Part shown: piece by piece, positions 21,781 through 40,176 of the stretch
Numbering within the stretch: the first letter of the stretch is position 1
Layout: the number at the start of each line of letters is the position of its first letter
IMG/VR virus record: IMGVR_UViG_650377933_000002
Reading direction: 5' to 3' (one strand)
DNA: 55,306 bases
DNA from: a virus
Taxonomy: Duplodnaviria; Heunggongvirae; Uroviricota; Caudoviricetes
Position numbers and translations under genes: made by a program
Notes under the pieces: generated by a model
Told to the model about the DNA's origin: nothing
The model's database searches: none
Seen by the model: only the letters and a program-made list of their open reading frames with translations

Positions 21781-21900
21781 TTGATGATGCCTCTGTGTGA
21801 AATGACGGTAAACGACGCACTTGTGCCGGCACATAATAGCAAGCACCATAATAGATCAGATTCGATTCTTGCTGTAAGTGATAATTATTCTCGTTTTCGG

Positions 21901-22117
21901 GTCCTTTCCGTCGATCCAACAGGTTACGGGGCGGCGACCTCGCGGGTTTTCGCTATTTATGAAAATTTTCCGGTTTAAGGCGTTTCCGTTCTTCTTCGCC
22001 GTAACCTAATGTTTTTATTTAAAACACCCCCTGAAAAGAAAGGAAACGACAGGTGCTGAAAACGGGCTTTTTAGCCTCTGTCGTTTCCTTTCTCTGTTTT
22101 TGTCCGTGGAATGAACA
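21901..22117 (+). other. phage cos site (cosQ-cosN-cosB); cosN cohesive-end sequence GGGCGGCGACCT at 21929..21940
   Basis: Matches lambda ..CAACAGGTTACG|GGGCGGCGACCTCGCGGGTTTTCGCTATTTATGAAAATTTTCCGGTTTAAGGCGTTTCCGTTCTTCTTCG.. immediately upstream of Nu1. Confidence 0.9.
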
Positions 22118-22637
22118 ATGGAAGTCAACAAAAAGCAGCTGGCTGACATTTTCGGTGCGAGTATCCGTACCATTCAGAACTGGCAGGAGCAGGGAATGCC
22201 CGTTCTGCGAGGTGGTGGGAAGGGTAATGAGGTGCTTTATGACTCTGCCGCCGTCATAAAATGGTATGCCGAAAGGGATGCTGAAATTGAGAACGAAAAG
22301 CTGCGCCGGGAGGTTGAAGAACTGCGGCAGGCCAGCGAGGCAGATCTCCAGCCAGGGACTATTGAGTACGAACGCCATCGACTTACGCGTGCGCAGGCCG
22401 ACGCACAGGAACTGAAGAATGCCAGAGACTCCGCTGAAGTGGTGGAAACCGCATTCTGTACTTTCGTGTTGTCGCGGATCGCAGGTGAAATTGCCAGTAT
22501 TCTCGACGGGCTCCCCCTGTCGGTGCAGCGGCGTTTTCCGGAACTGGAAAACCGACATGTTGATTTCCTGAAACGGGATATCATCAAAGCCATGAACAAA
22601 GCAGCCGCGCTGGATGAACTGATACCGGGGTTGCTGA

Positions 22638-22663
<26 letters not shown>
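22118..22663 (+). CDS. nu1: terminase small subunit Nu1
   Basis: 181-aa ORF identical to recalled lambda Nu1 (MEVNKKQLADIFGASIRTIQNWQEQGMPVLRGGGKGNEVLYDSAAVIKWYAERDAEIENEKLRREVEELRQ..). Confidence 0.95.
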
Positions 22664-26344
<3,681 letters not shown>

Positions 26345-28073: not shown

Positions 28074-28349
28074 ATGTCTGTATATACAACTGCAGAATTA
28101 CTGGCATCGACCCAGCATCACTTTAAGTTCGATCCGCTGTTTCTGCGCCTGTTTTTCCGTGAAACCTATCCTTTCACCACGGAAAAAGTCTATCTCTCAC
28201 AAATTCCGGGACTGGTAAACATGGCGCTGTACGTTTCGCCGATTGTTTCCGGTGAGGTTATCCGATCCCGTGGCGGCTCCACCTCTGAATTTACGCCGGG
28301 TTATGTCAAACCCAAGCACTTAGCATGGCTTTCTGAGGCTTTCGTGTAG
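28074..28349 (+). pseudogene. E: major capsid protein E, 5' fragment (interrupted by insertion)
   Basis: First 82 codons match lambda E (MS.YTTA.LLA.....FKFDPLFLRLFFRE.YPFTTEKVYLSQIPGLVNMALYVSPIVSGEVIRSRGGSTSEFTPGYVKPKH), then 9 unrelated codons and a stop; the remainder of E resumes at 39388. Confidence 0.9.
28309..28318. repeat. left copy of 10-bp direct repeat AACCCAAGCA (candidate att core)
   Basis: Identical 10-mer at both E/insert junctions (28309..28318 and 39386..39395). Confidence 0.65.
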
Positions 28350-28481
28350 TTGCTGGTTTTTACACTTAATCTTTTGATAATAAAGAATAAGTTTATCTGG
28401 CGCTTTCACTGAATTTTCCTCGTTATCTGTGTGTTGCAATCATCTCTGTATTGCAGCTTGTATTGCTTTTTGGGGCTAAAA

Positions 28482-29717
28482 ATGGCTGGCGAGAACAAAC
28501 TGAGCGACAAAGCGCTTAAAGGATATCTGGGGAAACCCAGAGAAAAGCAGATCACCATTGCTGATGGAAAGGGGCTTTCTATTCGTGTGAGTACTAAAGG
28601 GGCTGTGAGCTTTGTTTTCTTCTACAGGTTAGCAGGTGGCCGGGATGCTCCGGTCTGGCTAACGTTGGGTAAATATCCTGATATGTCACTCAAACAGGCA
28701 AGGGAAAAGCGCGACGAGTGCCGTGGTTGGTTGGCTGACAAACGTGATCCGCGTATCCAGATTAAGATTCAGGCTGAAGAACGCTTAAAGCCGGTCACAG
28801 TGGAGGATGCACTAAATTACTGGTATGAAAATTACTGTAAGGTGCGTCGTAAAACTCATGCTGTAACGCTTGGCAGATTTCGAAAGCATATCTTTCCCTA
28901 TATCGGTCATTTGCCCGTAAATGACACTCACCTATATGAATGGCTGGACTGTTTTGACCGAATTAAACGTAATGCACCAGTTATGGCGGCGTATGTTTTT
29001 TCTGACACTAAATTAGCTCTTCGTTTTTGTCGGGTACGCCAGTACGCGACGTGTGATGCTTTAAAGGATTTGCGCATGAGTGATGTGGGGCAGATTGCAG
29101 GTAAGCGGGATCGGGTTCTGGATGAAGCCGAACTGGGCCAGCTCTGGAAGGCAATTTTTGTCGAGCCTGATTTAAAACTAATGTCTGAATACACGCGAAA
29201 AATGTTTGTGCTTTGTACAGTATTTGGATGTCGAATGAGTGAAGCCCGATTATCTGAATGGAGCGAATGGGATCTCGAAAGTTGGGTTTGGACTGTACCA
29301 AAAGATCACTCAAAAACTGGTGTTGAAATCGTCAGACCAGTACCTGAAATTCTACGACAGTGGGTAACGGATGTTCACGAAGAGACAAAACATACTGGTT
29401 ATGTGCTGGGAAGTCTGCGAATTAGAGAAAGCGTAAGCAAGATTGGGGGGAAAATCGGTAAACGTTTGGGCCATGAAAAACAATGGTCACTACACGACCT
29501 TAGAAGAACGCTATCTACTCATCTAAGTGATCTCGGTGTTGAATTTTATGTAGTAGAACAACTGTTAGGCCATGCGCTACCTGGCGTGGCAGGTGTTTAC
29601 AACCGGAGTAAGTTTATGGCTAAAAAACTGGATGCTCTGGAACTCTGGACTACATATCTCAATAGCATCGCAGGTGCTGATTCAAAAGTGACAATCCTCA
29701 AACAAAAGGCTGGTTAA
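28482..29717 (+). CDS. int: P4-type tyrosine integrase of the inserted element
   Basis: ORF 28431..29717; plausible ATG at 28482 (MAGENKLSDKALKGYLGKP..); C-terminal catalytic region (..WSLHDLRRTLSTHLSDLGV....LLGHALPGVAGVYNRS..). Confidence 0.85.
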   Translation: MAGENKLSDKALKGYLGKPREKQITIADGKGLSIRVSTKGAVSFVFFYRLAGGRDAPVWLTLGKYPDMSLKQAREKRDECRGWLADKRDPRIQIKIQAEERLKPVTVEDALNYWYENYCKVRRKTHAVTLGRFRKHIFPYIGHLPVNDTHLYEWLDCFDRIKRNAPVMAAYVFSDTKLALRFCRVRQYATCDALKDLRMSDVGQIAGKRDRVLDEAELGQLWKAIFVEPDLKLMSEYTRKMFVLCTVFGCRMSEARLSEWSEWDLESWVWTVPKDHSKTGVEIVRPVPEILRQWVTDVHEETKHTGYVLGSLRIRESVSKIGGKIGKRLGHEKQWSLHDLRRTLSTHLSDLGVEFYVVEQLLGHALPGVAGVYNRSKFMAKKLDALELWTTYLNSIAGADSKVTILKQKAG

Positions 29718-29718
29718 C

Positions 29719-29946
29719 ATGAAAAAAATGGCAATTGTTGATAAAAAGGGTCTGGAGTACATTCCTAACATCGATCGTATGATCCGTGAGAAAGAATGTC
29801 GGGAGCTAACCACTCTTGCAAACAGCACACGCTGGAAGCTGGAGAAGGAAGGAAAATTTCCTAAGCGGATCAAGATTGGTTCCACTGCTGTTGCATATCG
29901 TCTTTCAGAAGTGCAGGCATGGATTCGAGGTGAGTGGGTAGTTTAA
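29719..29946 (+). CDS. alpA: AlpA-family transcriptional regulator/excisionase
   Basis: 75-aa ORF 1 nt after the int stop, with AlpA-like HTH (..RELTTLANSTRWKLEKEGKFPKRIKIGSTAVAYRLSEVQAWI..). Confidence 0.8.
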   Translation: MKKMAIVDKKGLEYIPNIDRMIREKECRELTTLANSTRWKLEKEGKFPKRIKIGSTAVAYRLSEVQAWIRGEWVV

Positions 29947-30015: not shown

Positions 30016-30552
30016 TTATAAGAGATTAAATCCAAATAAAGAGTAATCATATACCGGGGTGCATTGCATCCCACTGAATATGCTGATGTTTTTTTCTGTT
30101 TCTATCCTTTTTTCAATAAGTTGTTGTATATTTTTACAGTACAATTTGTGTGTGATGTTATTATCGTAAGCCTGATATAGCAACGTCAATGTTGACGCTA
30201 GGAAACATACAGATAAAATTAAAATAATATATGCAGTTTTTTTATTTTTTGTCCATGATCTATTTGTTTGTGAAATATAAAGAATTCTGAGGTGGATAAT
30301 GGTGAGAGACAATAGCAGGCCACTCAATAAAATAAGTATTGGGTTTGCGTATTTTATTAATGGTTGAGAGCAAAAAACTATTATAGCTCCTGTGACTGCG
30401 TATGAGAAAAAGGAGTGATTAAACTTCTTACTCCTTCTCTCAAGTATTTTAATTTCATCTTGCGTGGGGGTTTTAGATGCCTCTAATATAAGTTTATTGA
30501 ATTTTTCTGTTATCTTGTTTTTTGTGTTTGTGGCTATTTTTTTTAGATTCAT
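30016..30552 (-). CDS. hypothetical membrane protein (AT-rich accessory gene)
   Basis: 178-aa ORF in a very AT-rich segment; at least three hydrophobic helices (..VTGAIIVFCSQPLI..ILILLSGLLLSLTIIHL..AYIILILSVCFLASTLTLLY..). Confidence 0.45.
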   Translation of the reverse strand: MNLKKIATNTKNKITEKFNKLILEASKTPTQDEIKILERRSKKFNHSFFSYAVTGAIIVFCSQPLIKYANPILILLSGLLLSLTIIHLRILYISQTNRSWTKNKKTAYIILILSVCFLASTLTLLYQAYDNNITHKLYCKNIQQLIEKRIETEKNISIFSGMQCTPVYDYSLFGFNLL

Positions 30553-31923: not shown

Positions 31924-32211
31924 ATGAAAAATAAATTTTCTGGCTTTATTGCCAGCGGTCAAACTCATTCAAAAATCAGCCTTGGGGATATTTTCAAAGA
32001 TAGCTATGGCTATCGAGTAAAGATTATTTCGGTTGATGATCGCCGTGTCTCTTATTTGCGTGATGGTTATGATTTTGAATGTGTTATGCCGCGTCAGCAG
32101 TTCGAAAGAGATTTCATTCTGGTAAAAAATTGCAAGACAGATAATCAGAGGCGTTCCGCAGGCTATATCCGCAAAATTCGGGCAATGTTAGTTGCCGGAG
32201 GTAACAAATGA
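31924..32211 (+). CDS. hypothetical protein
   Basis: 95-aa ORF; stop overlaps the primase start. Confidence 0.4.
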   Translation: MKNKFSGFIASGQTHSKISLGDIFKDSYGYRVKIISVDDRRVSYLRDGYDFECVMPRQQFERDFILVKNCKTDNQRRSAGYIRKIRAMLVAGGNK

Positions 32212-34028
32212 AACGTGCTCCGAACTTAAAATACCAACCGCGCGACAAAATGACAGAAGTCATCATTTTTGCTGGCAGTGATGCCTGGAGCCATGCAAAA
32301 GAATGGAATGAATGGGCGGGTAAGCATATTGCAGCAGATGATACACCACCAGTCATTCTGGGTACGGAACAACTGGAAAACCTGGATGATATGCAAATTA
32401 TCGATGAAGGCCGTCATTATGTGCGTGTTTATCGTGCCGGAAAGATCGCAGAGAAAAATCTGACGAAGGTTGCGACATTACTTGCTATTGCAGGCGTAAA
32501 GGAAGCACGTTGTTACCGTAGCTTTGTTGATCGAGAGCCTGAAGACTGGACTCCGCGCCTTGTCGGCCTAAAAGCTGAAGCGGAGCATGGGGAAAGTCTG
32601 GTGATTGAACTGCCAGTGAAGAAGGCAGAGCGCAAAAATGACGAGCGTGCTTCATCTTTGGCGTTGAATCAGATGGGGGCCAGCCAGCGCGGTGAAGTTC
32701 TCCTGGCACATTACGGCGGCGAACTGGCAATCAATGCCGACTCTGACACCGTTCATCATTACAACGGCGTTGTATGGGAGCCGGTTCAGGATAAAGAGTT
32801 ACAGCGTGCTATGGCGCAGATTTTCATTGATGCGGAGATCAGCTATTCGCAGAACGCCATTAAATCGGCGGTAGATACCATGAAGTTAAGTTTGCCTGTA
32901 ATGGGGAATACAGCCCGTAACCTGATTGGATTCAGTAACGGGGTATTTGATACCAGAACTGGTAATTTTCGGGAGCATAACAAAAACGACTGGTTGTTAA
33001 TTGCCAGTGAATTACCTTTCAGCCCACCAGCAGAGGGGGAAACGCTGGCAACACATGCGCCGAATTTCTGGAAGTGGTTGCGCCGTTCGGTGGCTGAGAA
33101 TGACCGCAAGGCAGATCGCGTACTGGCGGCATTATTCATGGTGCTGGCGAACCGGTACGACTGGCAGTTATTCATTGAGGTAACAGGGCCGGGGGGAAGT
33201 GGTAAAAGTGTGATGGCGGAGATTTGCACCATGCTGGCGGGTAAGGCTAATACAGTATCAGCAAGCATGAAGGCGCTGGAAGATGCAAGGGAACGTGCGT
33301 TAGTGGTTGGCTTTTCGCTGATTATCATGCCGGATATGACCCGCTACGCTGGTGATGGGGCAGGGATTAAGGCCATTACAGGCGGTGACAAGGTGGCAAT
33401 TGACCCGAAACACAAAGCCCCCTATTCAACGCGTATTCCGGCAGTAGTGCTGGCGGTTAACAATAACGCCATGTCATTCAGTGACCGCAGCGGGGGGATC
33501 TCACGTCGTCGGGTGATATTCAATTTTTCGGAAGTTGTACCGGAGAACGAACGCGATTCGATGCTGGCGGAAAAAATAGAAGGTGAGCTGGCGGTAGTGA
33601 TTCGCCATCTGCTTACACGGTTTGCTGATCAGGACGAAGCCAGACGCCTGTTATATGAGCAGCAGAAATCTGAAGAAGCACTGGCGATAAAGCGAGAGGG
33701 GGATTCGCTGGTGGACTTCTGCGGCTATCTCATGGCATCGGTAATGTGTGATGGCCTGTTAGTGGGTAATGCTGAAATTGTGCCATTCAGCCCACGCAGG
33801 TATCTCTATCATGCCTATCTGGCTTATATGAGGGCACATGGGTTTGGTAAACCTGTAACACTGACGCGCTTCGGTAAAGATATGCCGGGGGCAATGGCGG
33901 AATATGGCAGGGAGTATATGAAACGGAAAACGAAGCACGGTTTGCGTTCAAACGTGACACTGACGGAGGAATCAGAAGACTGGATGCCATCATGTGTATC
34001 GGTCACTAATGACGATAGCAAAAATTAA
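32208..34028 (+). CDS. primase/helicase (P4-alpha-like, SF3-type P-loop NTPase)
   Basis: 606-aa ORF with GGAGG RBS; Walker A VTGPGGSGKS and downstream Walker B-like acidic stretch (LIIMPDMT); followed by an iteron array. Confidence 0.8.
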   Translation: MKRAPNLKYQPRDKMTEVIIFAGSDAWSHAKEWNEWAGKHIAADDTPPVILGTEQLENLDDMQIIDEGRHYVRVYRAGKIAEKNLTKVATLLAIAGVKEARCYRSFVDREPEDWTPRLVGLKAEAEHGESLVIELPVKKAERKNDERASSLALNQMGASQRGEVLLAHYGGELAINADSDTVHHYNGVVWEPVQDKELQRAMAQIFIDAEISYSQNAIKSAVDTMKLSLPVMGNTARNLIGFSNGVFDTRTGNFREHNKNDWLLIASELPFSPPAEGETLATHAPNFWKWLRRSVAENDRKADRVLAALFMVLANRYDWQLFIEVTGPGGSGKSVMAEICTMLAGKANTVSASMKALEDARERALVVGFSLIIMPDMTRYAGDGAGIKAITGGDKVAIDPKHKAPYSTRIPAVVLAVNNNAMSFSDRSGGISRRRVIFNFSEVVPENERDSMLAEKIEGELAVVIRHLLTRFADQDEARRLLYEQQKSEEALAIKREGDSLVDFCGYLMASVMCDGLLVGNAEIVPFSPRRYLYHAYLAYMRAHGFGKPVTLTRFGKDMPGAMAEYGREYMKRKTKHGLRSNVTLTEESEDWMPSCVSVTNDDSKN

Positions 34029-34039
34029 ACTTATGGAAT

Positions 34040-34275
34040 AACTGTTCACCACTGTTCACCCTGTCATAAATATCTTTTATATCAGTATATTATAGGGTGA
34101 ACAGTTATTTATGAACTGTTCACCAAACTATTCACTGTTCACCTTTTTGATTGTTTATTGAGCTTCAAGGGTGAACAGTAGTGAACAGTTGGTGAATAGT
34201 TTTTGTGAAACTGTTCACCCATTAACATTATGAATTAAAAGAGAAAATATCAAAAGGTGAACAGGTGAAGGGTTA
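34040..34275. repeat. iteron array (about 9 copies of CTGTTCACC in both orientations), candidate replication origin of the element
   Basis: ACTGTTCACC at 34041 and 34051, GGGTGAACAGTT at 34095, AACTGTTCACC at 34114, CACTGTTCACC at 34133, GGGTGAACAGTAGTGAACAGTTGGTGAATAG at 34169..34199, CTGTTCACCC at 34211, GGTGAACAGGTGAAG at 34257. Confidence 0.75.
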
Positions 34276-35007: not shown

Positions 35008-35224
35008 ATATTGCCAATAAAAAAGGCCGGAAAAAAATAAATTTTCCGGCATGCTACATAAATCCCGACCAAAGGGAGTGAAGATATTAACACTAATTAT
35101 CCGCGCTGAAGTTGTTATCCCAAAACTTTATACAACATTGCACTCGGTTGCATGTATTCGCATGACAAATATCGGTGATAGCATATATCCACAATTATTT
35201 TTAATGAATGCAAAGAGGATGCGT

Positions 35225-36265
35225 ATGGTTGATTTATATTCGCCTACCCAGCTTGTACAGGTGGTTAATGCTGTAGATGTACAAAAACAACTAAATGCGT
35301 TGTTTACCAGTTTGTTTTTTACTCGCTCGGTAATGTTTGAATCGCGCGATATTATTCTTGATACAATCGACGATCCAAATATCCCAATTGCAGCGTTTTG
35401 TTCTCCTATGGTGGGTAGTAAAGTTTCACGTGACGAAGGGTACGAATCAAAAACAATTCGTCCAGGCTATATGAAGCCGAAAAGCAGCATTGATCCAAAT
35501 AAGTTAGCTGTGCGCCCTGCTGGTGTATCACCTGAGCAATACAATGCTTTTGGAGCGCGTAATATTAAAGTTAAACAGGCGATTGTAAATCAGGCTAAAG
35601 CTATTCGTGCACGTATTGAATGGCTTGCCGTTCAGGCAATCACAACGGGGAAAAATATCATTGAGGGCGATGGTATTGAACGTTATGAGCTGGACTGGAA
35701 TATTAAACCACAAAATATCATCACTCAGTCTGGCGGTGCTGAGTGGTCAGGTAAGGATAAAGAAACTTTTGATCCAAATGATGATATTGAGAGCTACGCA
35801 GAATTTAGTGAGGGCGTCACTAATATCATCATTATGGGCGGTAATGTATGGAAGAAATACCGTTCATTCAGAGCGATAAAAGAGGCTCTGGATACCCGTC
35901 GTGGTTCTAATTCCGAACTGGAAACGGCTCTTAAAGACCTTGGTGATTCGGTGAGTTTTAAAGGGTATATGGGCGATGTTGCGATTGTTGTATACAGCGG
36001 GCGTTATACCGACGAGGACGGAACTGAAAAACATTTCCTTGATCCTGATTTGATGGTGCTTGGCAATACGGCTCTTCAGGGGATTGTCGCCTATGGCGGT
36101 ATTCAGGATCCGGAGCTAATCCGAATGGGGCTGACTAAAGCCGAACTTGCACCGAAAAACTATATTGTGCCTGGTGATCCGGCTATTGAATATGTGCAGA
36201 CACATTCAGCACCACAGCCAATACCGGCCCGCATCAATCGTTTTGTTACCGTTCGCATTGGCTAA
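35225..36265 (+). CDS. lambda E-like major capsid protein encoded by the inserted element
   Basis: ORF 35051..36265; ATG at 35225 with AAGAGG RBS gives 346 aa; clear homology to lambda E (RPGYMKPKSSIDP / ITQSGGAEWSGKDKETFDPNDDIESYAE / DTRRGSNSELETALKDLGDSVSFKGYMGDVAIVVYSGRY versus lambda TPGYVKPKHEVNP / ITQSGGTEWSKRDKSTYDPTDDIEAYAL / DTRRGSNSELETAVKDLGKAVSYKGMYGDVAIVVYSGQY). Confidence 0.8.
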   Translation: MVDLYSPTQLVQVVNAVDVQKQLNALFTSLFFTRSVMFESRDIILDTIDDPNIPIAAFCSPMVGSKVSRDEGYESKTIRPGYMKPKSSIDPNKLAVRPAGVSPEQYNAFGARNIKVKQAIVNQAKAIRARIEWLAVQAITTGKNIIEGDGIERYELDWNIKPQNIITQSGGAEWSGKDKETFDPNDDIESYAEFSEGVTNIIIMGGNVWKKYRSFRAIKEALDTRRGSNSELETALKDLGDSVSFKGYMGDVAIVVYSGRYTDEDGTEKHFLDPDLMVLGNTALQGIVAYGGIQDPELIRMGLTKAELAPKNYIVPGDPAIEYVQTHSAPQPIPARINRFVTVRIG

Positions 36266-36274
36266 GGGGGAGCA

Positions 36275-36616
36275 ATGGCTACTCATTACACTGAACTCAT
36301 GGCTGGCACTGAAGCACTGGTGACTACGCTGGGGATATTTTCAGCTAATAAAGGGGTAATTCCTGCATTTACGCCACTGATGCAGGAAGATGCAACAGGT
36401 GCACTGGTGGTATGGGATGGTTCGAGCGTAGGTAAAGCGGTTTATGTTTCCGCTGTACAAATCGACACCGCGAAAAAAACACAGGCTCAGGTCTATAAGA
36501 CAGGTGTCTTAAATGTTGATGCTCTGAACTGGCCTGAGTCTGTAAAAGAACTGTCAGTAAAGATTGCAGCGTTTGTTGGCTCAGGTATTTCTGTTCAGCC
36601 GCTGGCTCGTGTGTAA
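36275..36616 (+). CDS. D-like head decoration protein encoded by the inserted element
   Basis: 113-aa ORF directly after the E-like gene; weaker similarity to lambda D (..ALVVWDGSSVGKAVYVSAV.. / ..AAFVGSGISV.. versus ..[19 protein letters not shown].. / ..[11 protein letters not shown]). Confidence 0.55.
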   Translation: MATHYTELMAGTEALVTTLGIFSANKGVIPAFTPLMQEDATGALVVWDGSSVGKAVYVSAVQIDTAKKTQAQVYKTGVLNVDALNWPESVKELSVKIAAFVGSGISVQPLARV

Positions 36617-36627
36617 AGGGGGATACA

Positions 36628-37011
36628 ATGCAGAATGATTACAATGACCTTAAGCCAATTGCCGAAATGATGTACCCGAATCCAGCTGTAGAGGAATTAA
36701 AAGCTATCGCTGACAAAATGTGTTTAAGCGAGCGCCTTGTTGATATGAATCAGGTGATGGAAATTACAACCCTGAGTCGGCGTACACTGCTAAACCTTGA
36801 GGCTAGTGGAGAGTTCCCGGAGCGTGTGCAGGTTACGGAAGGGCGTAAGGCCTGGTATTTAAGTGAAGTGATCGACTGGATAAATAATATTCCTCGCGCT
36901 TCTGAATATTGCCGCGTACCTGTCCCAAAAAAGCCAGATGCGGCGCTATGCCTCAAGATTGAGCGTGTACGCCGCAATGCACGGGATGGTCGCTATAAGC
37001 TGATTGGTTGA
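36628..37011 (+). CDS. AlpA-like HTH DNA-binding protein directly upstream of the element cos site
   Basis: 127-aa ORF; central AlpA-like motif (..MNQVMEITTLSRRTLLNLEASGEFPERVQVTEGRKAWYLSEVIDWI..). Confidence 0.5.
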   Translation: MQNDYNDLKPIAEMMYPNPAVEELKAIADKMCLSERLVDMNQVMEITTLSRRTLLNLEASGEFPERVQVTEGRKAWYLSEVIDWINNIPRASEYCRVPVPKKPDAALCLKIERVRRNARDGRYKLIG

Positions 37012-37019
37012 TGAAATTA

Positions 37020-37256
37020 GGGCCCGCTCTGGCTGGCGGGTCCTTTCCGGCGATCTGACAGGCTACGGGGCGTCAGGCGCGCAGTTTTTCTCTATTTATG
37101 GAAATTTTCCGGTTTAAGGCATTTCCGTTCTTCTTCGCCGTAACTTTATGTTTTTATTTAAAATACCCCCTGAAAAGAAAGGAAATGACAGGCGCTGAAA
37201 ACGGGCATTTTGGCCTCTGTCGTTTCCTTTCTCTGTTTTTGTCCGTGGAATGAACA
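37020..37256 (+). other. second cos-like site carried by the inserted element (divergent cosN, conserved cosB)
   Basis: About 215 bp homologous to the phage cos/Nu1 leader at 21901..22117; cosB side nearly identical (..TATTTATG.AAATTTTCCGGTTTAAGGC.TTTCCGTTCTTCTTCGCCGTAAC..GAAAAGAAAGGAAA.GACAGG.GCTGAAAACGGGC.TTTT.GCCTCTGTCGTTTCCTTTCTCTGTTTTTGTCCGTGGAATGAACAATG) but the cosN segment differs (ACGGGGCGTCAGGCGCGCAG versus ACGGGGCGGCGACCTCGCGG). Confidence 0.8.
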
Positions 37257-37451
37257 ATGGAAGTCAACAAAGATCAACTGGCTGACATTTTGGGCAAGAG
37301 TTGTGCAATACTTTTGTCAGACGTAAATATTTTTGAGGAACATTATTATATTGATGTAATTAGAGATATGTTTGATAGGACTAGAAATAAAGCAGACGCC
37401 TTAGTTATGTCAATTGCTGAAATAATAAAGGAAAATAGCAATGATAAATAG
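37257..37451 (+). pseudogene. Nu1 5' remnant fused to unrelated AT-rich sequence
   Basis: First about 12 codons resemble Nu1 (MEVNKDQLADILG versus MEVNKKQLADIFG) then diverge into AT-rich sequence; 64-codon ORF ends at a convergent terminator. Confidence 0.5.
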
Positions 37452-37453
37452 AA

Positions 37454-37477
37454 AAAAGCGGTCACGCGACCGCTTTT
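37454..37477. terminator. bidirectional intrinsic terminator between convergent genes
   Basis: AAAAGCGGTC ACG CGACCGCTTTT palindromic hairpin flanked by A-run and T-run. Confidence 0.65.
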
Positions 37478-37514: not shown

Positions 37515-38063
37515 TTACTGTTCACCAATTTGCTCTCTAAACTGTGTACTGAACGTATCTAGTTGAGAGACAAATGAATGTGCATTTAAAAATTTATTAT
37601 AAATCTCTTCAGCTGTGCTTTCTAATACAAAAGTAGCATAATTATTATGTGCTAATTTATTTCTTAGCTCTCCGATTTCCATAAAATCAGAGATAGACTT
37701 GGTCAACTCTGTGCTTGATTTTACCTTCTCAATCATAAACTCTTTAAATTTTGGGCCAAAAAAGGAAAAAAACTGGTTTGCATTCCTTTTTTTCCAATCA
37801 AAGAGTGTATGATACTGCCTGGTTAGGGCCTTATTATCGATAAAATCGTGTGTAAGATTACATTGGCTTGGGTTAAGCATACAATGTATCTTAGTTACAA
37901 CTAAAGTTTCAAAATAGCTAGCACATGCTAATAGCATTACTTTTGAAAATTGTGATTTGTAATCATTAGCAAAACTAATCTCATTATGAGTTAGAAGAAA
38001 ATCATAATAACACTTATAGTTATTAAACATACTTTCAATAGAAGTATATCCCATATCCTCCAT
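37515..38063 (-). CDS. HEPN-like protein (Rx4H motif), downstream gene of the DUF262 operon
   Basis: ORF 37515..38096 (GTG); ATG at 38063 lies 4 nt after the upstream stop; C-terminal ..EIGELRNKLAHNNY.. fits the HEPN Rx4-6H motif; strongly AT-rich. Confidence 0.5.
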   Translation of the reverse strand: MEDMGYTSIESMFNNYKCYYDFLLTHNEISFANDYKSQFSKVMLLACASYFETLVVTKIHCMLNPSQCNLTHDFIDNKALTRQYHTLFDWKKRNANQFFSFFGPKFKEFMIEKVKSSTELTKSISDFMEIGELRNKLAHNNYATFVLESTAEEIYNKFLNAHSFVSQLDTFSTQFREQIGEQ

Positions 38064-38067
38064 TATT

Positions 38068-39231
38068 TTACATTCCCTCCAAAATTGTTCTTGCACGTTC
38101 TAGACGTCCAATTACATGCTCTCTTCTTGTTGTTTTATCAGTACTAAATGTCAGAAATTCAGGATCATTTTTAAGCTTATCGATGTAATTCACCGTCACT
38201 TGTCTTATTTTTAGATCTTTATCTTTAAATGAGTCATAAGTTGCAGCATAAAAAATTGACTCAAATAAAGTTATACTCATACGATTCCCACCAGTTCTGA
38301 AATTGATTTCATCAATTCCATCAACACTATCCATAAATTCATTCCATATATTACTAAATAAAGTTATGTCTTTAGTGTCGTAGTTTTTTGCATAATTTGA
38401 GAAATTGTTCAAAAAACCGCTAACTGAGCTTTTGTATTGAGATGTAAAAAGGGACATAGCAAATGTGCGCAATATCGCTTCAATATCACTCAATCGCATG
38501 TCAACAACATTTTTTGAAAGAATTTTTCTCCATGTCTTGTTTTCATTCAATGAAACAAGATTTGAAAGAAAGTCTGAGTGATATAAACTCATACGAATTT
38601 CTTGAGGAGAAAGGTTCATTCCCCCACTATTTAGGCGGTTAAATATTTCAAACATTGCACCATCTTCCGAATCTTGTGCAACCGGTTTGATTACCATATT
38701 TCGTATGGTTGCCAGATTTAAAGTGGTTTGAAATTCGTTTAATGTTTCATAGTTTTTCCCATTAAACTTGTTTTTTTGGGTGTCTGATAGACCATCAAGT
38801 TTTAGGTTGAACTTTGTGAAGTATTCATCATTGTGAAGAATGTTTTCTGGAATGTTTCCATTATCTTCAAAGATTTTTCTCAGTTCAGAACGTTTCTCTT
38901 TTCTAGGGAATACACCATTTACAAAGTAATAAAGGGTCATTAATCTCTGCTGACCATCTATCACTAAAAATTCATTTTTATCTTGTTCATATAAAAATAT
39001 TTGAGGTATAGGAAGGCCTATTAAAAGAGATTCAATGAGTTTTGATGCTCGTTTGATATCCCAAACATAATGCCTTTGAAAGTTAGGGATTTTAAAAACT
39101 TTTGATTTAATAAAACTTATAATTGTGATTATATTAAAATCATTGGGCGTAGTAGTAAGTTGAAACTCATCAATTGGATAGGATTCTGGCTCATCCTCGT
39201 ATTGCTTTTCTTCATAATCTTCTGGTTGCAT
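38068..39231 (-). CDS. DUF262 (ParB-like nuclease/NTPase superfamily) protein
   Basis: ORF 38068..39279 (GTG); ATG at 39231 (MQPEDYEE..) preceded by AAGGA; hallmark DUF262 motif ..FLVIDGQQRLMTLYYF..; strongly AT-rich. Confidence 0.7.
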   Translation of the reverse strand: MQPEDYEEKQYEDEPESYPIDEFQLTTTPNDFNIITIISFIKSKVFKIPNFQRHYVWDIKRASKLIESLLIGLPIPQIFLYEQDKNEFLVIDGQQRLMTLYYFVNGVFPRKEKRSELRKIFEDNGNIPENILHNDEYFTKFNLKLDGLSDTQKNKFNGKNYETLNEFQTTLNLATIRNMVIKPVAQDSEDGAMFEIFNRLNSGGMNLSPQEIRMSLYHSDFLSNLVSLNENKTWRKILSKNVVDMRLSDIEAILRTFAMSLFTSQYKSSVSGFLNNFSNYAKNYDTKDITLFSNIWNEFMDSVDGIDEINFRTGGNRMSITLFESIFYAATYDSFKDKDLKIRQVTVNYIDKLKNDPEFLTFSTDKTTRREHVIGRLERARTILEGM

Positions 39232-39385
39232 CGTGTCATCCTTTTTCTTCGTGAATATGGTTTTTAGACAAGTCCTCACTACACATATCTGTATTGCAGA
39301 AAGTATTGCAGTGATAGGAGTTGCGTAGATATATAAACCACAAAGCTAAGTGAAATCAAATAGTTCTTTCGGGATTGACTCATGT

Positions 39386-39395: not shown

Positions 39396-40176
39396 TGAGG
39401 TGAATCCGCAGATGACCCTGCGTCGCCTGCCGGATGAAGATCCGCAGAACCTGGCTGACCCGGCTTACCGTCGTCGCCGTATTATTCGGCAGAATATGCT
39501 GGATGAAAATCTGGCGATTGCCCAGGTCGAAGAGATGCAGGCAGTTTCTGCCGTGCTTAAGGGCAAATATACCATGACCGGTGAAGCCTTCGATCCGGTT
39601 GAGGTGGATATGGGCCGCAGTGAGGCGAATAACATCACGCAGTCCGGCGGCACGGAGTGGAGCAAGCGTGACAAGTCCACGTATGACCCGACCGACGATA
39701 TCGAAGCCTACGCGCTGAACGCCAGCGGTGTGGTGAATATCATCGTGTTTGATCCGAAAGGCTGGGCGCTGTTCCGTTCCTTCAAAGCCGTCAAGGAGAA
39801 GCTGGATACCCGTCGCGGCTCTCATTCCGAGCTGGAGACAGCGGTAAAAGACCTGGGCAAAGCGGTGTCTTATAAGGGAATGTATGGCGATGTGGCCATC
39901 GTCGTGTATTCCGGACAGTACGTGGAAAACGGCGTCAAAAAGAACTTCCTGCCGGACAACACGATGGTGCTGGGGAACACTCAGGCACGCGGTCTGCGCA
40001 CCTATGGTTGCATTCAGGATGCGGACGCACAGCGCGAAGGCATTAACGCCTCTGCCCGTTACCCGAAAAACTGGGTGACCACCGGCGACCCGGCGCGTGA
40101 GTTCACCATGATTCAGTCAGCACCGCTGATGCTGCTGGCTGACCCTGATGAGTTCGTGTCTGTACAACTGGCGTAA
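39388..40176 (+). pseudogene. E: major capsid protein E, 3' fragment (codons 80-341)
   Basis: In-frame from CCC AAG CAT GAG GTG AAT CCG CAG (PKHEVNPQMTLRRLPDEDPQNLADPAYRRRRII..SVQLA), matching the lambda E C-terminal 259 aa; joined to 28074..28319 it gives a full 341-aa E. Confidence 0.9.

Follow-up and report, generated by a model that had tools for sequence, protein, structure and literature searches.

A lambda-type cos site with a variant cohesive end and a small-terminase remnant in the embedded E. coli satellite Eco567.11capE

The 55,306-nucleotide stretch of DNA analysed here ("the window") contains two cos sites, one in a lambda-like prophage and one in a satellite that is embedded in that prophage. 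The satellite site reproduces the subsites of a lambda-type packaging site at unaltered spacing, but its cosN has diverged from that of the helper, and it is followed by a stump of the small-terminase gene terS. It is probable that this cos is a lambda-type packaging site at which the terminase subunits of the helper, Nu1 and gpA, suffice to process the variant cosN without the participation of any satellite factor. The odd sticky end of the satellite is, on comparison of the available sequences, an ordinary allelic variant, which also occurs in phages whose terminase is nearly identical to that of the helper.

The novel content of these observations is modest, and consists of the five differences among the twelve bases of the sticky end between satellite and helper, the terS stump, which records a replacement by cargo, and the several configurations of cos and terS found in the satellite family. 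The results fit the known genetics of lambda cosN, and they do not overturn current understanding.

The satellite and its helper prophage

The window corresponds to the composite element 61icd of E. coli NRG857c, in which the PICI Eco567.11capE ("11capE") is embedded in the prophage 50icd, as described by Tommasini, Mageeney and Williams (bioRxiv 2022; NAR Genom Bioinform 2023, PMC10111431). The cos segment gives a 100% match to the NRG857c genome (NC_017634.1), and the element in the window is the same as the published one, with the insertion in capsid gene E, a capsid gene of its own and the integrase-alpA-primase order. Its authors found that 11capE and 50icd share 258 bp at 90% identity at the position of the lambda cos, presumed that 11capE is packaged by its helper through cos, and detected no plaques or virions of either element from NRG857c (PMC10111431). 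The cos copy of 11capE is therefore already published. The difference in cosN, the cosB subsites, the terS remnant, the second AlpA-like gene and the family-wide polymorphism of cos are absent from that paper, and both the cosN difference and the terS stump have ordinary explanations.

The host prophage is lambda-like, with Nu1, A, W, B, C and D followed by the tail genes, and its major capsid gene E is interrupted at 28349/39400 by the 10.9-kb satellite. A comparison over 130 residues shows no difference between the Nu1 proteins of helper and lambda, and phages with other cosN alleles have a gpA that is 99-100% identical to that of the helper. The satellite encodes an integrase, AlpA, a D5_N primase, an SSB, homologues of the capsid protein E and the head-decoration protein D, and an AlpA-like protein of 127 aa, which is followed by the cos copy; two further genes, on the minus strand, lie in DNA that is AT-rich. 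The presence of int (28431-29717), alpA (29719-29946) and the D5_N primase gene (32208-34028), all on the + strand, places the element among the HE-PICI/HES satellites. The features that define the composite are as follows.

21897-22117, + strand: cos of the helper prophage (50icd), with cosQ GGGTCCT at 21899-21905, the cohesive end GGGCGGCGACCT at 21929-21940, and a lambda-type cosB that extends up to the start of Nu1
22118-24563, + strand: helper terminase genes, Nu1 at 22118-22663 and A at 22638-24563 (Pfam Phage_Nu1, E 2.5e-100)
28441-28466, + strand: attL-side repeat of the satellite, which splits helper E (N-terminal fragment 28074-28349; Pfam Phage_cap_E matches both E fragments)
39284-39309, + strand: attR-side repeat of the satellite, after which helper E resumes (39400-40176)

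Anatomy of the satellite cos site

The helper cos recurs in the satellite as an ungapped direct repeat of 274 nt at 88% identity (21889-22162 and 37028-37301; repeat search and pairwise alignment), and a regular-expression scan of the window finds only these two cos sites. The initial annotation had described this duplication, with cosB kept and cosN diverged, and the region lies where it was placed, except that the start of the homology is here corrected to about 37036, at cosQ and about 221 bp ahead of the ATG at 37257 (37036-37301 pairs with 21897-22162). With lambda record L163 as the reference and the subsite positions taken from Murialdo and Feiss (2022), the identity between satellite and helper amounts to 27/33 in the cosQ region (positions -33 to -1), 11/18 in cosN (positions 1 to 18, GGGCGGCGACCTCGCGGG compared to GGGCGTCAGGCGCGCAGT), 29/31 at positions 19 to 49, 24/24 at positions 166 to 189, and 34/39 nt over Nu1 codons 1-13, while past position 229 the similarity is random (9/32 and 14/70). 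The identity outside cosN taken as a whole is 222/243 (91%), and positions 6-18 account for 7 of the 28 mismatches, a concentration for which the hypergeometric P is about 9e-5 with an interval that was picked after the data had been seen. The subsites of the satellite cos are listed below.

37038-37044, + strand: cosQ GGGTCCT, at -30 to -24 from the top-strand nick, the same position as in lambda record L163
37066-37081, + strand: cosN CG/GGGCGTCAGGCG/CG, with a predicted 12-nt cohesive end at 37068-37079
37117-37132, + strand: R3 AGGCATTTCCGTTCTT, positions 50-65, 15/16 identical to the helper, with a single change at position 54
37133-37174, + strand: spacer between R3 and R2 with the I1 (IHF) region, 39/42 identical to the helper and of equal length
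37175-37190, + strand: R2, inverted, AAGAAAGGAAATGACA, 15/16 identical to the helper
37217-37232, + strand: R1 CTGTCGTTTCCTTTCT, 16/16 identical to the helper

The cohesive ends of satellite and helper differ at positions 6, 8, 9, 10 and 12, and positions 1-5 are kept together with the CG dinucleotides that flank the nicks. Four of these five differences lie within bp 7-12, and the fifth, a change from G to T at position 6, lies in the left half. The spacing of all the subsites is that of the helper and of lambda, with zero indels. Bases 55-63 of R3, which form the stretch contacted by TerS, are unchanged in the satellite, and the one altered base, at position 54, lies outside that stretch (the extent of R3 and its contacts are those given in PMC9026076). 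The elements of a lambda-type cos that the satellite possesses are thus the cosQ heptamer, the stagger and left half of cosN (except for position 6, under the conservation rule of PMC4669245), and a cosB with R3, the IHF spacer, an inverted R2, and R1.

A G-to-A change replaces CGTTTCC by CATTTCC in both R3 (37121) and R2 (37186), with R1 unchanged. The change in R2 is common among the relatives, and the change in R3 is confined to satellites of the window type. These substitutions were considered as a possible mark of altered TerS specificity, but the case is weak, since the R2 change is so widespread and position 54 falls outside the contacted bases.

Because the satellite cosB has lambda-type subsites and spacing and the helper Nu1 is identical to that of lambda over the residues compared, the satellite cosB should be cognate for the small terminase of the helper; and because the satellite terS is reduced to 13 codons, 11capE should depend on helper Nu1 for the recognition of cosB. 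On the preferred reading, the satellite cos (37036-37256, comprising cosQ, cosN, R3, I1, R2 and R1) would have been acquired, along with a small-terminase gene, from a lambda-like phage, and a two-gene defence cassette would have taken the place of that gene, leaving 13 drifting codons. Helper Nu1 and IHF would assemble on the satellite R3, R2 and R1, and helper gpA would be positioned to nick between 37067 and 37068 on the top strand and between 37079 and 37080 on the bottom strand. This nicking would yield 12-nt ends GGGCGTCAGGCG, and no satellite-encoded specificity factor would be required. Binding, cutting and packaging at the satellite cos in NRG857c are in this sense predictions read from the DNA. 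The recruitment of the helper terminase through an intact lambda-type cosB, which the initial annotation had suggested, emerges as the most plausible course, given the agreement of R3 (15/16), R2 (15/16) and R1 (16/16) with the helper. The G-to-A changes in R3 and R2 must be counted against it, as must the fact that the authors who described 11capE detected no virions.

The satellites of this family may be divided into "class I", which have the lambda-type R3-I1-R2-R1 cosB, and "class II", whose cosB is of another type and whose TerS is full-length and a distant relative of Nu1. A copied lambda cosB combined with reliance on helper Nu1 predicts that the helper range of an element like 11capE is limited to phages of lambda specificity, and the class-I satellites for which the helper can be read lie, in three cases of three (the window, L003/L134 and E. 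coli ECA64), in helpers with a lambda-type Nu1 and cosB. Satellites that carry a helper-type cos and are packaged by an unmodified helper terminase are exemplified by P4 with P2 and by SaPIbov5 with cos phages, and the strategy of 11capE would be the same. To our knowledge, the cohesive ends of P4 and SaPIbov5 are identical to those of their helpers, and neither satellite is integrated inside its helper.

Cohesive-end alleles in satellites and phages

An exact search of IMG/VR with the satellite cosN followed by CGCAG returned 37 contigs, all of which belong to the family of the satellite and have capE, gpD and an AlpA-like gene at -439 to -59 from cos, as well as a fragment of helper E about 2 kb downstream. 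An exact-match search is circular with respect to cosN, and it was therefore repeated with an anchor outside cosN, a 22-mer that spans cosQ and ends upstream of cosN, which recovered 100 loci, about 96 of them satellites. The cohesive end in these approximately 96 satellites is GGGCGTCAGGCG in 53, GGGCGGCGACCT in 37, GGGCGGAAGGCG in 4, GGGCGGCAGACG in 1 and GGGCGGCTGACG in 1. The bases ACG/GGGCG are invariant across these loci, and the five alleles vary only at positions 6-12. The family comparison constitutes a natural data set on the cosN positions at which terminase tolerates change. Among the satellites of the IMG/VR sample, a lambda-type cosB is always paired with the variant cosN.

The phage cos sites recovered with one complementary anchor carry GGGCGGCGACCT in 56 of 56 contigs, in combination with at least six types of cosB. 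The first 37 exact hits, all of which are satellites, could have suggested that the variant cosN allele is specific to satellites, but this is ruled out by an exact search with the variant followed by CGCGG, which returned four phage contigs (L167-L170, assumed here to represent viable phages), each with GGGCGTCAGGCG followed by a lambda-type cosB. Three of the four reach the terminase genes, where Nu1 is 98-99% and gpA 99-100% identical to that of the helper over the part covered. L169, which alone spans the whole of the terminase genes, has three differences in Nu1 and six in gpA relative to the helper, and the D and E genes that follow are intact. The end GGGCGGAAGGCG is found in two N15-like phage-plasmids (L038 and L039), together with a gpA that differs from that of the helper at 4-6 residues, and most of these differences are also present in phages with the lambda end. 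Since a near-identical gpA accompanies GGGCGGCGACCT, GGGCGTCAGGCG and GGGCGGAAGGCG, one type of terminase serves three cohesive-end alleles in nature.

It has been reported that natural variation occurs at bp 7-12 of cosN and that most mutations there have minimal effect (PMC4669245, citing earlier mutants), that the yields obtained with lambda TerL are the same for cosN-lambda as for the right-half variant cosN-N15 (Feiss et al. 2015, PMC4669245), that cosQ and the CG pairs beside the nicks are conserved, and that anchoring by cosB renders the adjacent nick insensitive to sequence (PMC4669245). The difference in the satellite cosN should be tolerated by terminase because the cosB-proximal nick is set by this anchoring, and not by the sequence of bp 7-12. 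The cases of N15, phiD326 and Gifsy-1 (Feiss et al. 2015, PMC4669245) resemble that of the satellite in that cosN varies naturally and terminase is not specific for it. The satellite allele has five differences, including one in the left half at position 6, where N15 has two and Gifsy-1 three, and, unlike in those three cases, the variant sits in a satellite that is embedded in a helper with the canonical end. The initial annotation had supposed that a diverged cosN might be cut differently or only with the help of a satellite factor; the occurrence of the same allele in phages with 98-100% identical Nu1 and gpA, together with the results of Feiss et al. (2015), speaks against this. The change from G to T at position 6, which is found mostly in satellites and in the four phage contigs, might also tune the ease with which terminase cuts, but this is unlikely. 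A full-text literature search for the cohesive-end sequence returned nothing relevant.

The difference between the sticky ends could in principle be adaptive. Ends that are mismatched at 5 of 12 positions would block the joining or co-cyclisation of satellite and helper, and chimeras with mixed cos ends arising from an unexcised composite would be dead ends; the cohesive-end alleles would then act as compatibility groups, and selection would favour those embedded satellites whose 12-nt ends are unable to anneal to the ends of the helper. Compatibility groups, if they exist, would explain why over half of the satellites have ends other than the lambda end while the one-anchor phage sites have GGGCGGCGACCT, since the variant end occurs in 53 of about 96 satellites, compared to the lambda end in 56 of 56 phage cos sites from one anchor. 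It is also known that a 2-bp mismatch cuts the yield about 4-fold (PMC4669245), and among the five helper-satellite pairs that can be read, a helper with the lambda end is combined with a satellite with the variant end in four (the window, L134/L003, L127/L052 and E. coli ECA64). Four mismatched pairs in five, however, are no more than is predicted from independent allele frequencies, and the loci are phylogenetically non-independent. Moreover, 37 satellites have the lambda end, the variant allele occurs in phages too, the satellite and helper cos of E. coli A37 are of the same type, cosN included, and the geometry yields no clear benefit to the satellite. An adaptive origin of the difference is unlikely on this evidence, and the division of the alleles into compatibility groups is equally doubtful.

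The terS remnant and the defence cargo

The region between the satellite cos and the attR-side repeat contains the following features.

37257-37451, + strand: 64-aa ORF, of which codons 1-13 (37257-37295) are a 5' remnant of Nu1/terS with the changes K6D and F12L, and the remainder is unrelated and AT-rich
37454-37477, bidirectional: intrinsic-terminator-like hairpin with a 10-bp stem, between the 64-aa ORF and the convergent cargo
37515-39279, - strand: cargo that replaces terS, HEPN (RiboL-PSP) and DUF262/GmrSD_N (Pfam, PADLOC), with a GC content of 31-35%

The 64-aa ORF is best regarded as a remnant, and not as a terminase subunit. It begins with MEVNKDQLADILG, compared to MEVNKKQLADIFG in Nu1, and its likeness to Nu1 covers residues 1-13 only, which stops short of the recognition helix (residues 17-24) and the wing that characterize Nu1/PF07471; the ORF has no Pfam hit. 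The stump contains five substitutions in 39 nt, two of which appear as amino-acid changes, beside 40 unchanged bases directly upstream, a pattern that fits a loss of constraint. The terminator hairpin follows the end of the ORF after a gap of 2 nt, and the arrangement given in the initial annotation, in which a 5' remnant of Nu1 runs into unrelated, AT-rich DNA up to a terminator, is thereby confirmed, with a length of 13 codons. PADLOC scores the cargo pair as NsnA (9e-60) and PD-T4-2_A/B, that is, as a PD-T4-2-like or NsnA-like defence pair.

The slot between cos and attR is occupied in other members of the family by TIR-like, restriction-endonuclease-like or DUF2971 genes, or by terS. A full-length terS lies at +190 from cos in several class-I satellites (L002, L006, L028, L031, L058, L060, L074 and L092); the class-I product is a protein of 183 aa whose N-terminal half is identical to that of lambda and whose C-terminal part has diverged, and in E. 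coli ECA64 the satellite terS carries the RefSeq annotation of terminase small subunit. Other class-I relatives diverge straight after R1, whereas the window type retains 13 codons. Because the relatives hold either a full-length terS or varied cargo at this place, the stump is what remains of a terS that the satellite once carried and that cargo has displaced. Behind cos lies a hotspot for defence cargo, and the satellites of this family exchange their cos-terS end as a module, in which some members have a terS of their own, of lambda or of distant type, and others have none.

The same remnant raises the question of whether the whole site is in decay. If the satellite cos were a relic that has lost terS and cannot be packaged by this helper, 11capE would be inherited only vertically, with the prophage. 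The drift of the Nu1 remnant (five changes in 39 nt, two of them at the amino-acid level), the point changes in R3 and R2, the lack of detectable virions from NRG857c (PMC10111431), and the degraded context of the copy in E. coli IAI39 all fit such a history. Yet cosQ, the nick context, R1 and all of the spacings are intact, in a module just outside which the sequence is unrelated, and an identical segment of 461 bp is found in at least 20 E. coli genomes, in varied hosts and places. In addition, the block formed by the late zone, cos and cargo occurs in combination with more than one integrase and primase backbone, as L024 illustrates, and this implies recent mobility and recombination. It is therefore improbable that the site is a decaying relic, and a working lambda-type site served by the helper terminase remains the preferred reading.

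The AlpA-like protein

The last gene of the late zone lies directly upstream of cos and encodes a protein that was a candidate for a packaging function.

36628-37011, + strand: AlpA-family winged-HTH protein, 127 aa

The identification of this HTH gene as AlpA-like in the initial annotation is borne out by a match to Pfam Phage_AlpA (PF05930, E 7.6e-9, 35.8 bits compared to a cut-off of 21, residues 36-85) and by a match to the AlpA-family protein of PDB entry 8c3t (E 2e-9); a single-sequence AlphaFold model has a pLDDT of 39, too low to be informative on the fold. The gene lies at -439 to -59 from cos in all of the approximately 96 relatives, whatever their type of cos, and it is also present in Kluyvera, Superficieibacter and Cedecea (64-69% identity), where the cos module stays beside capE-gpD-AlpA127.

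The initial annotation had further proposed that this protein is an analogue of the Rpp proteins, in which case it would be an Rpp/TerS-like specificity factor that acts at cos or on Nu1, either because the variant cosN could not otherwise be cut or so as to divert the terminase from the helper. AlpA, Xis and MerR-type winged HTH domains belong to the same general fold class as the DNA-binding domain of Nu1. This shared fold class speaks for the proposal, as do the constant position of the gene directly upstream of cos in the relatives and in three other genera, and a non-significant BLASTP alignment of the protein to Nu1 residues 3-49 (E 0.12). The protein, however, gives no BLASTP alignment to RppA up to E 100, and no Rpp or Nu1 chain up to E 10 in a sequence search of the PDB. 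Its gene is on the wrong side of cos, since an Rpp gene follows cos and occupies the place of terS, in combination with a non-helper cosB (PMC6739421, PMC9026076). Its allele groups (95-100% and 76-79% identity) do not co-vary with the type of cos, but are scattered over several cosN alleles, the commoner group occurring with both classes of cosB. Finally, the same cosN allele is found in phages that do not have the AlpA-like protein, and redirection would be needless because the satellite cosB already matches the helper.

A comparison with an established Rpp-type element leads in the same direction. In the CFT073 genome, cos1 of EcCICFT073 has the cohesive end GGGCGGCGACCT, an unrelated sequence in the place of cosB and, immediately after it, rppA (144 aa) in the position of terS, with an inverted cos2 further on, a layout that agrees with Fillol-Salom et al. 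(2018, 2019) and with Murialdo and Feiss (2022, PMC9026076). EcCICFT073 and 11capE are both E. coli PICIs in which a capsid gene, a head-decoration gene and a small gene precede cos, both rely on the TerS and TerL of a lambda-like helper, and in both the late zone ends on the right with cos, beside accessory genes. They differ in that EcCICFT073 has the cosQ and cosN of its helper with an unrelated cosB, and an Rpp at the terS position that re-targets TerS, whereas 11capE has a helper-like cosB with a differing cosN, and a terS stump in place of an Rpp. A tblastn search with RppA found nothing in the relatives of the window, and one with c1501, the gene upstream of the EcCICFT073 cos, gave no match in any HES locus. 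The window accordingly shows none of the marks of an Rpp-type system, namely an Rpp downstream of cos, an unrelated cosB with a shared cosN, and homology of the AlpA-like protein to Rpp. The packaging class to which 11capE belongs is unlike that of the Rpp-type E. coli PICIs, in that the cosB of the helper has been copied and the small terminase of the helper is relied on. A packaging role of the AlpA-like protein is thus unlikely, its action as an Rpp/TerS-like specificity factor is highly improbable, and the default reading is that it is a regulator or directionality factor.

Other features of the element and its relatives

The capsid E homologue of the satellite (35051-36616) is 48% identical to the C-terminal fragment of helper E, and the gpD homologue is likewise the satellite's own. 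The capsid ORF has 404 aa when it is delimited mechanically, and 346 aa in relatives for which a later RefSeq start is given. An AT-rich ORF (about 33% GC) of 178 aa that is membrane-like lies on the - strand between alpA and the replication genes (30016-30552), with no significant match in Pfam or PADLOC, and a scan of the satellite against Rfam gave no family at threshold.

The class-II satellites, which account for many of the loci L041-L103 (for example L043, L047 and L050), have a cosB of another sequence (GGTGGTGGTTTTGTTG...) at +45 to +170, and a TerS gene at +190 to +730 from cos whose product is 35-40% identical to lambda Nu1, which amounts to a strategy with a satellite-encoded small terminase. 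Further cohesive-end alleles, GGGCGTCGACCT and GGGCGTAAGACG, occur in Superficieibacter (L161) and Cedecea (L162), respectively, and a T at position 6 is recurrent in satellites of several genera.

The satellite copy in E. coli IAI39 (L165, NC_011750.1) is located outside any prophage, where it adjoins a tRNA-Arg gene, an IS3 element and a broken integrase gene, and its primase gene has an internal stop. In E. coli A37 (L166, NZ_CP029327.1, positions 2014 and 17548), a 21-like cos is present in both helper and satellite, and the satellite encodes its own terS, which looks like the result of a recent exchange of the whole cos-terS module with the helper. The idea that embedded satellites avoid a fully helper-like cos was considered as well, and is ruled out by E. 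coli A37 and by the Kluyvera locus L160. Repeated, palindromic units of the form GGTGAACAGTT...AACTGTTCACC are found at 34038-34219, just 3' of the D5_N primase gene, and probably constitute the replication origin of the satellite.
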